Shown piece by piece: positions 1,290 through 4,990 of a DNA stretch of 12,608 bases (positions within the stretch are counted from its first letter, which is position 1; each line of letters begins with the position of its first letter). The position numbers and the translations under genes were made by a program. The notes beneath the pieces are model-generated. The model did no database searches and was not told where the DNA came from. It saw nothing but the letters and a program-made list of their open reading frames with translations. The stretch lies in IMG/VR virus record IMGVR_UViG_2537562191_000063; one strand, 5' to 3'. Origin of the DNA: a virus. Its lineage: Duplodnaviria; Heunggongvirae; Uroviricota; Caudoviricetes.

Positions 1290-2051
1290 TCACTTTTCCG
1301 ACACAATACGACTGGAGGAATCGAAAATCTGTCGAACAATATCCCGGTGCTTGTTCAGCTCCCGCAGCGCGGCGCAGACTCGCTCCCACTTCTGGACATG
1401 ATTTTTCGCCCGACGCAGTTCGCGGTTTGCCATATGCAGCGATGGTAAAACCAGGTCATCCGCTCGCGTTTCAGTAAACGATGGCAGCGACTGCACAATG
1501 TCCGCCACCGTTTCTGTTTTAATATCTTCCTGTGTTGCAGCCTCCTGTACTGGTAACGCAACACCTGTGGGCTGAGGAAAGGCCTTACCATCAGTTTCCG
1601 CTACCGATGCTGCTTTCGGCTCTGCTGGTAAATTATCGCCCGGTATGCAGTAACGAAATTTACCGTTCTGGTTTACGCGAATCAGGCGTCCTTTGCTGAT
1701 AGCCATTGCCAGCGTTGAAGCTACTTTGCGTGATGTGGTACCGAACAATGTAGCCAACTCATCCGCCGTTTGTGGGCCACGTTGTTCAATCGTCGCGGTT
1801 AAATCGCACTCTGAGATTTTCGCTACTGTTGCCATGGTGGTTTCTTCCGGCAGCTCTGCCGGCGCTGGCTGTTCCTGCTGAACGTTGTTATCAGCCACGC
1901 GCCAGGTGTATACGCTTTTATCAACGAAGCCAGCCTTTTTCAGTTCCCACAGCTCGTTCAGCACTTCTTCTCGACTGATATCAAGTCGCGTAGCCAGTTC
2001 TACCGACGTGGCTTTTCCCATCGCTTTCAGTGCGTCAAAAACGGTCTCCAT
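1290..2051 (-). CDS. hypothetical protein with two predicted winged-helix-like segments (253 aa)
   Basis: The track ORF extends to 2102, but the ATG at 2051-2049 has GGGAGG upstream and follows the ydaV stop (2074-2076). Starts [42 protein letters not shown]. Position after the DnaC-like gene suggests the intact version of a gene decayed in K-12 Rac; not verified. Confidence 0.6.
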
Positions 2052-2073
2052 TAAAATTTCCTCCCGGTAAAAA

Positions 2074-2820
2074 TTACTTCTCAATACCTGGCTGACCAAC
2101 ATTCGGGCGCCAGCTCTCCCAGTTAAAATTCACCCAGCGCCCGCCGTTCATGGTCATGCGATCCATAATCCGCTCGCCGAGCAATGTTTTCATGGCCTCA
2201 TAGTTCAGGTTTGTCAGCATCCCCACGCTGCGCATTGACGCTGTCCGGCGATCAACAATCTGGTGCAGTACCACCTGCTCGTTTTTCGTCTCGCGCTGAA
2301 TACCAATTTCATCAAGAACCAGCAGATCAACTTCGCACAGTTCCCGCAAAAATTTTTCGCCTGACTGCCCGTCGTCATAGCTGGCGTGCAGGGCGCTCAT
2401 AACATCAGCCACGGTAACCACAATCACTGTCTGGCCATCTTTCAGCAGGCGATTCCCGATAGCCGCCGCCAGATGGTTTTTTCCGGTACCAGGTTTTCCG
2501 CTGAACGCGAAATTTGTGCATCCGGTAACCAGTTCGTCAGCGATAGATTTCGCCTGACTCAACGCGTATCGCTGGCCGTCGTTCTGCACCTGGTAATTCG
2601 CAAACGAGCATTTGCGGTGCAACGGCTGTATGCCGGAGCGATTCAGGATTTTTTCCACCCGCAACTGACGATTCTGACGGTTGATCTCCTCACAACGTTT
2701 CTGGCCTTCTGCAAGTTGCCACTCGCGCCACTCCGCCACCGTCCTGAATGGCGCGGTTACATGTGGCGGGGCCAGTCTGCGGATACGTTCCAGAACGCCG
2801 CCTGTCGCAATATTTTTCAT
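2074..2820 (-). CDS. ydaV: DnaC/IstB-like AAA+ helicase loader, prophage replication protein (248 aa)
   Basis: Walker [14 protein letters not shown] and Walker [10 protein letters not shown] are present. Length matches my recollection of Rac YdaV (248 aa). Sits 6 nt downstream of ydaU. Confidence 0.85.
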
Positions 2821-2826
2821 GGTCTG

Positions 2827-3615
2827 TTACCCCCTGAAGCCTGGCGGGATCGCACTGTCCGGAAACGAGACGGTGTTAATCTGTCGGAGCAACGTCTCTG
2901 GCCGAACACCTTTCGGCGCGAACAAGCCCTGGTATTCATTGGCGATGCTGTGTCGAATCACCTGCTCAGGTGAAAAACCCTGCTGGCGGAATTTTTCCAG
3001 CTCCCGTATCGCCCCGTTAGCGCCCTGCTCCGTTCGAATCGGTTTTCGCAATGCCTGCCTGAACTGAACCCACTCATGCCAGAGTGTTTCCGGCAACCAG
3101 TCAGGCAGCTCGATAGCCTCCGGTTCGAATTTTTTAGACGCTCGTTTTTGGCGAGGGGGATTTAGGGGGAGATAAGTATTTATATCTTCCTCTTTCTCTT
3201 CCTCTGGTAACGCTTTTTGATCCGTTTTTGTAACGCTGGCAGCGTTACCTTTTCGTTTCAGTTCTCGTATTTTTGTTACTCTCTCGTTTGTAACCGCCCG
3301 TTTTTTAGAGCTTTTCCCGTTATGGCGCTCAAAGTTAGGAAGCGACAACACACCATTAGTTTCGACCAGCCATCCAACCTGAATTAACGCATCAGCAAAA
3401 CCAGCCATAAAAGTGATGCGATCTATTGCACTTTTTGTAACGCCGCGAGCGTTACACTCTGCGTTACCGTCTATCATTTGTTGATCCGCCCATGCCCAGA
3501 AGCGAATGACTTTCCCTAATGCGGCATCTGGATCAATATTCAGAATCTCAGCAAGCCTGAATATTTCCGGCTTATCCGGCGTAATAACTTCGAGCTTTAT
3601 CCAGTTTGAAGCCAT
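2827..3615 (-). CDS. ydaU: prophage replication-module protein, YdaU-like (262 aa)
   Basis: ATG at 3615-3613 with AGGTGA upstream; an in-frame TGA 3 codons upstream rules out an N-terminal extension. Immediately precedes the DnaC-like gene, in the position of lambda O relative to P. Contains the palindromic repeats described in findings. Confidence 0.7.
   Translation of the reverse strand: MASNWIKLEVITPDKPEIFRLAEILNIDPDAALGKVIRFWAWADQQMIDGNAECNARGVTKSAIDRITFMAGFADALIQVGWLVETNGVLSLPNFERHNGKSSKKRAVTNERVTKIRELKRKGNAASVTKTDQKALPEEEKEEDINTYLPLNPPRQKRASKKFEPEAIELPDWLPETLWHEWVQFRQALRKPIRTEQGANGAIRELEKFRQQGFSPEQVIRHSIANEYQGLFAPKGVRPETLLRQINTVSFPDSAIPPGFRG
3230..3248. repeat. 19-bp palindrome GTAACGCTGGCAGCGTTAC (copy 1 of 3), inside ydaU
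   Basis: Near-perfect dyad read directly from the sequence. An extra half-site GTAACGC lies at 3208-3214. Confidence 0.9.
3437..3455. repeat. 19-bp palindrome GTAACGCCGCGAGCGTTAC (copy 2 of 3), inside ydaU
   Basis: Dyad read directly from the sequence. An extra half-site GCGTTAC lies at 3461-3467. Confidence 0.9.
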
Positions 3616-3628
3616 TTGTTTTCACCTT

Positions 3629-3647
3629 GTAACGCTCGCAGCGTTAC
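3629..3647. repeat. 19-bp palindrome GTAACGCTCGCAGCGTTAC (copy 3 of 3), in the ydaT-ydaU intergenic region 14 nt upstream of the ydaU start
   Basis: Perfect 8-bp arms (GTAACGCT / AGCGTTAC) read directly from the sequence; lies immediately upstream of the ydaU ribosome-binding site. Confidence 0.9.
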
Positions 3648-3657
3648 ATTTAACTGA

Positions 3658-3679
3658 TACCGAACAAAACAGTTCGGTA
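3658..3679 (-). other. 8-bp inverted repeat / hairpin (TACCGAAC-aaaaca-GTTCGGTA) between ydaT and ydaU
   Basis: Perfect 8-bp stem with 6-nt loop, 14 nt after the ydaT stop. No U-tract follows on either strand. Confidence 0.5.
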
Positions 3680-3692
3680 CGATTAATTTCAA

Positions 3693-4115
3693 TCAATGCA
3701 CTACGACAGAATCGCTAGGAGAACCGCCGCCGCTGAAATGTGCTTTACGGTAAACGGCCTGGACTGCATCATCATGCGCATCAATTGCCGTACTCAGTGC
3801 ATCCTGTGCCGCCAGTAATGCACGGCGTTCCAGGGTATCGAAGATGCAGAGTCGGTGACGCAGCTCGCGAGGAAGAATTGCCAGAACCGCAGGGATCAGT
3901 TTCTGAATTTTTTCCCTTTGCGCATTCGTTTCACCTTTCAACCAACGATGATAGATATTCTGCTGATTGTTCCAGTCCTTGCCTGGTACCAGGGGCAATT
4001 CGCCGCCCCCCTGGCGCAGATATTCTTCAGTAATTGCGTTAGCGACCCACGCCTGCCCTTTTTCGGCTGCCAGGGCTAACAACACTGATTCGATGTGCTC
4101 ATGCTTGATTTTCAT
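3693..4115 (-). CDS. ydaT: YdaT-like protein (140 aa), reported toxic/CII-like partner of YdaS
   Basis: ATG at 4115-4113 with GGGAG upstream; start overlaps the ydaS stop (ATGA), implying translational coupling. Length and sequence (MKIKHEHIESVLLALAAEKGQAWVANAITEEY...) match my recollection of Rac YdaT. Confidence 0.8.
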   Translation of the reverse strand: MKIKHEHIESVLLALAAEKGQAWVANAITEEYLRQGGGELPLVPGKDWNNQQNIYHRWLKGETNAQREKIQKLIPAVLAILPRELRHRLCIFDTLERRALLAAQDALSTAIDAHDDAVQAVYRKAHFSGGGSPSDSVVVH

Positions 4116-4366
4116 GAATCAACTCCCATCAGCTTTTTCGTAGTAGTTTTATTTCTGCCAATAGTTAAAATTGCATCGGCAGAAAATAATCCGTTTGATG
4201 CATGAGCGATTTTTTCAGCGTAATTTGTTTCGCCGGTATATTCTGTGCGAGGCAATTTACCGTTATCCATCCATTTGTAGATTGCTCTTTGGCTGACACC
4301 ACAAACGTCGGCCACAACAGAAACGCGAACAGTTTTGATTACATCTTCAAGTGTTTTCTGGTTCAT
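4112..4366 (-). CDS. ydaS: Cro-like HTH protein, YdaS family (84 aa from the ATG at 4366; the ORF is open from 4438)
   Basis: The internal ATG at 4366-4364 has GAGGGTGA 5-6 nt upstream, whereas the ATG at 4438 has none. Segment VADVCGVSQRAIYKWMDNGKLP is HTH-like. Divergent from the repressor gene. Confidence 0.7.
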   Translation of the reverse strand: MNQKTLEDVIKTVRVSVVADVCGVSQRAIYKWMDNGKLPRTEYTGETNYAEKIAHASNGLFSADAILTIGRNKTTTKKLMGVDS

Positions 4367-4380
4367 ATCACCCTCACAAT

Positions 4381-4453
4381 GTGAACTTTGAGTACATGCT
4401 ATAACAGAACTGACAGTACATTCAAGAGCGAATATCATTGAACTTATGGTTCA
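4381..4453. promoter_or_regulatory. divergent promoter/operator region (OR-like) between ydaS and the repressor gene
   Basis: Direct repeats AGTACAT at 4391-4397 and 4415-4421 (24 bp apart); TGAACTT at 4382-4388 and 4439-4445; inverted repeat TGAAC-ttatg-GTTCA (4439-4453) centred on the repressor ATG. Confidence 0.55.
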
Positions 4454-4865
4454 TGAAGATAAAGCGCGTAAAGAGTTCGCCAGTAGGCTTGCGCTAGCCT
4501 GTGAAAACGCTGGTTATGAACAACATGGAAGGCAGGCAGAAATTGCCCGTCGAATGAAATTAACACCAAAAGCGGTTAGCAAATGGTTTAATGGTGAAAC
4601 AATTCCTCGCCGAGAGAAATTAAGGGAATTAGCAACACTCATTGGAACAACACCAACCTATCTTTTGGGAGAGGATACAGAAGAAAGTGGACAGATACGT
4701 TTCTATCAGGAGTTAAATCCAAGACAAAAAATCATCATTGACCTTCTGGACGAGCTCCCTGACAGTGAGACAGATGAACTTTTAAAAACTCTTGAGGAGA
4801 AAAAACAGAAGTACAATGCAATTTACGAAGAGTTAGCACGAAAGAAAAAACAAAAAGCCTCTTAA
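4446..4865 (+). CDS. racR: XRE/CI-type prophage repressor (139 aa), RacR-like
   Basis: N-terminal HTH (GRQAEIARRMKLTPKAVSKWFNGETIP), divergent from the Cro-like gene, charged C-terminus. No SD upstream of the ATG at 4446, so the transcript may be leaderless or use a short leader. My recollection of K-12 RacR is 158 aa, so the start or allele may differ. Confidence 0.7.
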   Translation: MVHEDKARKEFASRLALACENAGYEQHGRQAEIARRMKLTPKAVSKWFNGETIPRREKLRELATLIGTTPTYLLGEDTEESGQIRFYQELNPRQKIIIDLLDELPDSETDELLKTLEEKKQKYNAIYEELARKKKQKAS

Positions 4866-4934
4866 ACCAGCATAAATCCGGTAGCGTCCCCCTCCGGGTT
4901 TGTGCTTCACTTTATCCCGTCTCATTTTTTTATA

Positions 4935-4990
4935 CATAAAATGTACTTAAAGTACTTTACAATGATGAACACAAAGTACATTATATACCT
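4935..4990 (+). promoter_or_regulatory. operator/promoter-like region (OL/PL-like) downstream of the repressor
   Basis: Same motif as at 4391/4415: 13-bp palindrome GTACTTAAAGTAC (4943-4955), inverted ATGTACT (4941-4947), AGTACT (4951-4956) and AGTACAT (4975-4981), again 24 bp apart. TTTACA at 4956-4961 could serve as a -35 element, followed by an AT-rich -10 candidate near 4980-4987. Confidence 0.5.

Follow-up and report, generated by a model that had tools for sequence, protein, structure and literature searches.

That a phage origin of replication can lie within the gene of its initiator, and that its sites vary in step with the N-terminal domain of that protein, belongs to the classical biology of lambdoid phages. 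The lambda origin (lambda ori), as read from the sequence record, contains four dyad-symmetric iterons, TCCCTC-N6-GAGGGA, that occupy +348 to +432 of gene O; next comes ACAAAAGAAAAAAGAAAAGATTATTC, coding for T-K-E-K-R-K-D-Y. A second described system is the ydaU-ydaV region (oriJ) of the Rac prophage carried by Escherichia coli K-12. Here we analyze a 12,608-nucleotide (nt) stretch of DNA from a virus of the class Caudoviricetes (IMG/VR record IMGVR_UViG_2537562191_000063; "the window" means this whole stretch). It is 100% identical to a Rac-like prophage of E. coli strain E2863, and the module in question is shared with phage vB_EcoS-673R7 (a 37.8-kilobase (kb) record in which the gene is identical). 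A gene for a protein of 262 amino acids (aa), located between ydaT and ydaV (2827-3615, minus strand), carries two copies of the palindrome GTAACGC-N5-GCGTTAC, and a third copy precedes it. Judging from sequence, we consider it likely that these palindromes are binding sites of the phage's own lambda-O-like replication initiator, the product of this gene, and that they form a lambda-style origin.

The palindrome occurs exactly at 3230-3248, 3437-3455 and 3629-3647, and no other position in the window matches it with up to two mismatches. The number expected by chance is 0.01, and none of 200 shuffled sequences contained three copies. A first-pass annotation of the window had described three near-identical palindromes, beyond chance and about 200 base pairs (bp) apart; the copies are indeed exact, with centre-to-centre distances of 207 and 192 bp. 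In the 37.8-kb record of vB_EcoS-673R7 the motif (up to two mismatches) is found at these three places only. Two copies are inside the gene and one is upstream of it, also as annotated. Site 1, GTAACGC-CGCGA-GCGTTAC (3437-3455), is at +160 of the gene and codes for the N-A-R-G-V-T loop of the N-terminal domain (N-domain). Site 2, GTAACGC-TGGCA-GCGTTAC (3230-3248), is at +367, in the part that codes for a disordered linker. The upstream copy, GTAACGC-TCGCA-GCGTTAC (3629-3647), is situated in the leader between ydaT and the initiator gene; 14 nt separate it from the ATG, and the ribosome-binding site AAGGTGA follows closely on its 3' side.

Single arms are enriched as well: GTAACGC as a half-site is found at 10 places in the window (1.2 expected), eight of them within 3207-3647. 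Two extra half-sites had been annotated, and both fall inside the gene. The one at 3461-3467 (on the minus, i.e., coding, strand), which precedes the left arm of site 1 by 12 nt, was placed correctly. The other, a lone half-site that reads GCGTTAC on the coding strand (plus-strand orientation), was placed at 3208-3214, one base off its true position, 3207-3213, where it directly abuts a polypurine tract. The half-site at 3461-3467 is part of a 12-nt in-frame duplication (3456-3467; DGNA-ECNA-RGVT), and the same insertion is present in Pantoea and Pectobacterium. A 24-nt duplication of the full palindrome is seen in a homologue from a metagenome-assembled genome (L098, +148 to +190). Since in-frame duplications yield extra half-sites or whole sites, the number of sites appears to evolve by local duplication in the coding sequence.

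Homologues of the N-domain were gathered from phage records, viral contigs and bacterial genomes. A scan of viral contigs with the single protein returned near-identical E. coli loci only; an alignment-based scan reached homologues with other palindromes. Homologues of the GTAACGC class come from E. coli, Klebsiella, Pantoea, Pectobacterium, Xanthomonas, Pseudomonas, Ralstonia and Planctomycetota, with amino acid identity down to 43-54%. Their palindrome arms are held at two positions of the gene, about +148 to +172 and about +337 to +393, with zero to two arm mismatches in loci of 47-66% guanine plus cytosine (GC), while the 5-nt spacer varies freely. The first position, that of site 1, is retained in all homologues of this class. 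The comparison of homologues suggested by the first-pass annotation therefore finds the arms neither absent nor freely degenerate.

The three palindromes of the window share a codon phase: site 1 reads C-N-A-R-G-V-T-K, site 2 reads G-N-A-A-S-V-T-K, and the upstream copy would read C-N-A-A-S-V-T-R and then meet a TGA. The common phase and the peptides had been noted correctly, and their value as an argument is low. The phase G/TAA/CGC would place a stop codon in the gene, which leaves two of the three phases usable inside coding sequence; because TAA forbids one phase, a shared phase is weak evidence alone. Homologues translate site 2 in frame 0 or in frame 1, never in the TAA frame: it codes for G-N-A-A-S-V-T in the window (xGT-AAC-GCx) versus V-T-P-T-A-L in phage TL-2011b and a Klebsiella phage (GTA-ACG-C). 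At site 1 the glycine codon is GGT in all 23 non-redundant genes, compared with 24% of glycine codons elsewhere in those genes. The two arms of site 1 also change together, in a symmetric and compensated way: asparagine AAC is paired with valine GTT (16 of 16) and histidine CAC with valine GTG (7 of 7). A single 6+6 palindrome is present in two or more exact copies in 38 of 62 non-redundant homologues (61%). By the same measure, such copies are seen in 45 of 3,100 synonymous-codon shuffles (1.5%) and in 2 of 3,100 base shuffles. These comparisons establish, at the level of sequence, that the palindromes are DNA-level elements with selection acting on the nucleotides. The earlier preference for a DNA- or RNA-level element over a protein repeat is thus borne out by the free spacer, the changes of frame, the fixed synonymous positions and the codon-shuffle control.

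The 262-aa protein matches phrog_2509, "replication initiation protein", with an E-value of 3e-88 (PHROGs; 5e-68 for the N-domain region); the "O-like" PHROG match spans residues 76-236 only. Its N-domain of 138 aa (3202-3615, minus strand) is presumed to be the reader of the palindromes. This domain has no Pfam match and no meaningful NCBIfam match, and a profile search for relatives of solved structure found none. The family is nevertheless large, with 6,596 cluster representatives (50% identity, E-value up to 1e-3), and takes in epsilon15-like phages of Salmonella and Klebsiella as well as phages of Xanthomonas, Ralstonia, Pseudomonas and Vibrio. An AlphaFold2 model of the initiator has a mean predicted local distance difference test score (pLDDT) of 67. 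In the model the N-domain consists of helices 16-25, 29-48, 61-68 and 73-80 and a beta-hairpin 84-91, and its weak structural matches suggest a winged-helix-like fold. The linker 125-166 is modelled as disordered (pLDDT below 50), and the C-terminal part (C-part) as helical. Site 1 codes for loop 50-60 of the model and site 2 for the disordered linker; according to the model, both are places that tolerate a sequence imposed by DNA.

The gene had been called ydaU, a name that does not hold. The match to K-12 YdaU is limited to the C-terminal 124 aa (79% identity), and the N-terminal 138 aa are unrelated (16% identity). The N-domain of K-12 YdaU is DUF1376, to which the N-terminus of the window protein gives no match; a direct hhalign comparison of the two N-termini found no relation (probability 0.1%). 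We therefore rejected the identification as K-12 ydaU: the locus is a Rac-like module with only the C-terminus in common. The linker together with the C-part (2827-3201, minus strand) is the presumed partner of the helicase loader. The last 19 aa (2827-2885; ...PDSAIPPGFRG) are weakly similar to the last 19 residues of the primosomal protein DnaT (NCBIfam NF002770, E-value 0.0038, far below the cutoff), and a DnaT-like domain binding single-stranded DNA (PF17948) is present in several relatives.

Every diverged class of the N-domain has its own palindrome, in at least two copies each. Besides GTAACGC-N5-GCGTTAC, these are GTCACGC-N5-GCGTGAC (loci L113-L116, L161 and L165), GTCCGC-N7-GCGGAC (epsilon15, BUCT711, RPZH3, phiPSA1 and many contigs), GTAGACG-N6-CGTCTAC (the Raharianne group), GTGGCGC-N5-GCGCCAC (L176) and TGTCAC-N9-GTGACA (L170 and L178). 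Natural domain swaps separate the two parts of the protein. Two Klebsiella phages (L006 and L107) are 94% identical in the C-part and 33% in the N-domain, and carry GTAACGC and GTCCGC, respectively. The same is true for two Ralstonia phages (L105 and L106), with 89% identity in the C-part, 32% in the N-domain and again GTAACGC versus GTCCGC. Conversely, L005 and L006 share 19% identity in the C-part and 90% in the N-domain, and their palindromes are identical. As far as sequence goes, the palindrome tracks the N-domain and not the C-part, and the specificity classes of protein and site co-vary.

The association also works in the reverse direction. A scan of viral contigs for the exact GTAACGC palindrome returned 120 stretches, 101 of which code for an N-domain homologue. 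In 100 of these 101 all copies are in or beside the homologue gene, and in the remaining one this holds for two of three copies. All 52 stretches with two or three copies code for a homologue; the 19 stretches without a homologue hold one copy each. The motif search that had been proposed, made here in a related phage record and in viral contigs, thus finds most of the copies in or beside N-domain homologue genes. The sequences establish a two-way association between site and N-domain, in which the N-domain would be the binder. In six homologues from viral contigs (L159, L167, L172, L170, L176 and L178) both full palindromes are located in the linker, 35-45 bp apart, and the core of the N-domain has none; dispersal over about 200 bp is therefore not obligatory in the family.

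The lone half-site at 3207-3213 abuts the polypurine tract AGAGGAAGAGAAAGAGGAAGA (coding strand; 3185-3205, minus strand), a degenerate copy of a family-wide (AGAGA)n repeat and a candidate element for unwinding or helicase entry. Immediately 3' of the tract is the A+T-rich stretch TATAAATACTTAT (3172-3184, minus strand), followed by a C5-TAAAT-C5 motif (3155-3169, minus strand), which codes for L-P-L-N-P-P. The local GC minimum, 0.325, is at 3160-3199. The family form of the tract, AGAGAAGAGAAGAGAAGAGAAGA, is 23 nt long, comprises 4.6 units of AGAGA and codes for R-E-E-K-R-R-E. Most homologues have it without a single nucleotide change, whatever their palindrome class and in hosts that range from 48-69% GC, and its arginines are AGA codons even in GC-rich phages. 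The tract is found at about +370 to +435 of the gene in L005-L188 and usually begins 31 nt beyond the point where site 2 starts. A half-site belonging to the palindrome class of the same locus abuts the tract exactly in 42 of 68 non-redundant homologues, with the junctions GCGTTACC/AGAG, GCGTGACC/AGAG, GCGGACC/AGAG, CGTCTACC/AGAG and GCGCCACC/AGAG. After the tract, the relatives have A+T-rich DNA (GATATAAAAGATAAA or similar) and then two C-tracts coding for P-P-N-P-P.

This layout is lambda-like, as the sequences establish; the first-pass annotation had drawn the comparison with lambda ori inside O. In both cases the initiator gene itself holds the (here candidate) origin, at about +350 to +480, with dyad-symmetric sites at about +350-430 and then an A-rich polypurine stretch. 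The sites are dyad-symmetric (TCCCTC-N6-GAGGGA in lambda, GTAACGC-N5-GCGTTAC in the window), and the polypurine stretch that follows them codes for a charged linker (T-K-E-K-R-K-D in lambda, E-E-E-K-E-E-D in the window). In both, the N-terminal domain and the sites move as one module, apart from the loader-facing C-terminal part, and a helicase-loader gene is immediately downstream. Here this gene is ydaV (2074-2820, minus strand), which codes for a DnaC-like loader (NCBIfam PRK12377, 2.7e-153; DnaC PRK07952, 6.6e-91; Pfam IstB_IS21) and fits the interpretation of the locus as a phage origin. The differences are also clear. The four iterons of lambda stand in tandem at intervals of about 20-24 bp, whereas the window pairs one palindrome with a half-site at the tract and has its other palindromes about 200 and 400 bp upstream, one of which is not within the gene. 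Site 2 and the adjoining half-site are the only close pair (half-sites 23 nt apart, start to start). Unlike lambda O (Pfam Phage_rep_O), the window protein has no Pfam match, the loader is DnaC-like and not lambda-P-like, and the polypurine tract of the family is a near-invariant pentamer repeat across distant hosts. Iteron-type plasmid origins differ as well: the sites of the window are palindromes and not tandem direct repeats, they are within coding sequence and no DnaA box accompanies them, and the window protein has no sequence relation to the Rep families of iteron plasmids.

The proposed origin would comprise the three palindromes, the half-site at 3207-3213, the polypurine and A+T-rich stretch at 3172-3205 and the C5-TAAAT-C5 motif at 3155-3169. 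We envisage that dimers of the N-domain would bind the 19-bp dyad sites and that another subunit would occupy the half-site adjoining the tract. The dispersed sites, about 200 bp apart, would be brought together by looping into one nucleoprotein complex, and the adjoining A-rich polypurine tract would melt. The C-terminal part of the initiator would then recruit host DnaB via the DnaC-like loader YdaV. The suggestion of an origin-like or replication-protein-binding role, made before any homologue was compared, gains support from the co-variation with the N-domain and from the lambda-like layout.

Several observations weigh against an origin. Unlike the tandem iterons of lambda, the sites are spread out (192 and 207 bp in the window, 189-300 bp in relatives), at distances that do not correspond to whole helical turns. 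No DnaA box (TTWTNCACA) is present in the window. The tract could owe its conservation to a role as a recombination joint between modules. Both DNA binding by the N-domain and the firing of this stretch as an origin are inferred from sequence. Finally, the leader copy is limited to the Rac-type lineage and Pantoea, and its place beside the ribosome-binding site would also suit autoregulation. It is found at -32/-33 in Rac-type loci of E. coli and Shigella and at -44 in Pantoea, and is absent in TL-2011b and in the Klebsiella phage, Pectobacterium and Planctomycetota homologues.

The leader copy brings up the explanation that survives best after a replication origin, namely that the initiator or a partner protein uses the palindromes as operators to control its own operon: occupancy of the leader and intragenic copies would shut off transcription or translation, and replication would start elsewhere. 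The upstream copy, 14 nt from the ATG and next to the ribosome-binding site, is well placed for this; the wide spacing is like that of looping operators, and co-variation with the N-domain suits any cognate site, whether it is an origin or not. Nevertheless we regard self-control of this kind as unlikely. The two intragenic copies are universal, but most members of the family lack the leader copy. The best-kept arrangement, palindrome, half-site and polypurine/A+T tract, sits deep in the gene at the position of lambda ori, and no sigma-70-like promoter was found near any of the palindromes.

A second possibility is that the palindromes act as hairpins, either in RNA (stability or translation of the messenger) or in single-stranded DNA, where they would be a signal for priming or for assembly of a primosome. 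Each copy could fold into a stem of 7 bp closed by a 5-nt loop. None of 200 shuffled sequences folds as well as the leader region (z = -3.7), differences between classes retain pairing (for example, A:T to C:G), and some relatives have the DnaT-like C-terminal domain that binds single-stranded DNA. However, the copies within one genome share one sequence and change together between classes, which a plain hairpin would not need. The arms are invariant within a class, their mismatches are uncompensated, and lone half-sites that have nothing to pair with are conserved beside the tract. The covariance models of Rfam gave no relevant match within 3000-4500 at E-values up to 1. A hairpin function is thus improbable. 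In particular, the RNA hairpin that had been suggested at the upstream copy can form, yet it is not favoured, as unpairable half-sites are conserved too.

Binding by some other factor, such as the prophage repressor, the Cro-like protein, YdaT or a host protein, appears very improbable. Three helix-turn-helix proteins are indeed coded within 1.3 kb. YdaT, a CII-like protein, has an operator that is likewise an inverted repeat in the same prophage region; its published box is (A/T)TGATT-N6-AATCAA (PMC11879457). This box has other arms and another spacer and is not found in 3200-3650, and the GTAACGC palindrome occurs in phages that have no ydaT. YdaT was rejected as the binder because its published box has a different sequence. 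The neighbouring genes vary widely among phages that share a palindrome, and the N-domain alone is constant. Different palindrome classes in phages of one host genus argue against a host factor.

The idea that the repeats are a by-product of a protein motif N-A-x-S-V-T, with no function in DNA, can be dismissed almost entirely: the internal copies do code for similar peptides in the same phase, but the upstream copy is non-coding, the frame of site 2 differs in several homologues, the synonymous positions are fixed and the repeat is lost on shuffling of synonymous codons (1.5% against 61% observed), so that frames, synonymous sites and codon shuffles exclude a protein repeat as the source of the palindromes.

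Returning to binding sites of the phage initiator, what appears to be new here, on present sequence data, is an N-domain without a Pfam model or a relative of solved structure, dispersed palindromes combined with a half-site at the tract, and a near-invariant (AGAGA)n across distant hosts. The layout recurs across thousands of related phage genes and seems to be undescribed. Literature searches, the scope of which did not include subscription papers on oriJ, returned no description of these sites. More tentatively, we put forward a wider proposal, to which we give less credence than to the assignment of the sites. The family could represent an undescribed, phylum-spanning origin design, in which a near-invariant core (half-site, (AGAGA)n, A+T-rich DNA and C-tracts) is combined with interchangeable "specificity cassettes". 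A cassette would hold the DNA-reading domain of the initiator and its own palindromes within the same 0.4-0.5 kb, and the sites would dictate some of the codons (the G-N-A-x-S-V-T and G-H-A-x-G-V-T loops). The dispersed and leader copies may form a looped complex that couples origin firing to synthesis of the initiator. If such cassettes are real, specificity and origin would shift together in a single recombination event at the polypurine joint, since domain and sites are in one cassette.

In Rac-like prophages of pathogenic E. coli and Shigella the assignment offers a concrete predicted origin and a predicted pairing of initiator and site, and it would extend to the initiator family of 6,596 representatives that has no Pfam model. 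The natural specificity classes of protein and site, at least five in number, together with the natural swaps, make a system for studying the recognition code of the domain and for orthogonal phage replicons. They are also a case of overlapping codes, in which a binding site and a protein sequence constrain each other. The 23-nt tract, invariant in hosts of 48-69% GC, could serve in unwinding, in helicase entry or as a recombination joint.

The relation to the Rac prophage of K-12 is that of a mosaic. Homology of the window to strain MG1655 in the region of the module is restricted to 1602-3200 and 3695-4121 (blastn), with nothing matched over 3201-3694. The exchanged module, 3201-3694, is bounded by one joint at the polypurine tract and another at the ydaT stop codon, and it encloses all the palindromes, the half-sites and the region coding for the N-domain. 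As the joint between K-12 and the window falls exactly at the tract, the tract may also serve as a recombination joint. The position between ydaT and ydaV is the same in both prophages. K-12 ydaU also has an A-rich stretch followed by C-tract-TAAAT-C-tract, and repeats dispersed through the region coding for its N-domain. It differs in the DUF1376 N-domain and in the repeats themselves, and the GTAACGC sites are all missing. In MG1655 ydaU (L189, 2120-2977) the repeat (C/G)AGATGTT(C/G)AA occurs six times in total, at +147, +232, +391, +424 and +436 and, inverted, at +451; these repeats are probably the Rac (oriJ) counterpart of the sites in the window. The MG1655 annotation contains no origin feature in the ydaU region. 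The C-tract-TAAAT-C-tract DNA is kept in many homologues and in K-12 ydaU (C7-TAAAT-C7) despite the unrelated N-domain.

Upstream of the initiator gene are ydaT (3693-4115, minus strand), a Cro-like gene of 84 aa (4112-4366, minus strand) and a repressor-like gene of 139 aa (4446-4865, plus strand). The immunity region, 4122-4989, with the repressor-like and Cro-like genes, has no homology to racR/ydaS of K-12, and its flanks are 92-99.5% identical; from the sequence it is a second mosaic replacement, adjoining the replication module. A perfect inverted repeat, TTGATT-TTCATG-AATCAA (4105-4122), spans the ydaT start codon and fits the published YdaT box (PMC11879457). The intergenic region between ydaT and the initiator gene also contains a hairpin at 3658-3679 with an 8-bp stem, TACCGAAC-N6-GTTCGGTA. 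It has a terminator-like score on the plus strand, antisense to the operon, and lies within the leader whose folding exceeds that of the 200 shuffles; it may be the end of an oop-like antisense RNA or a signal for transcript processing.

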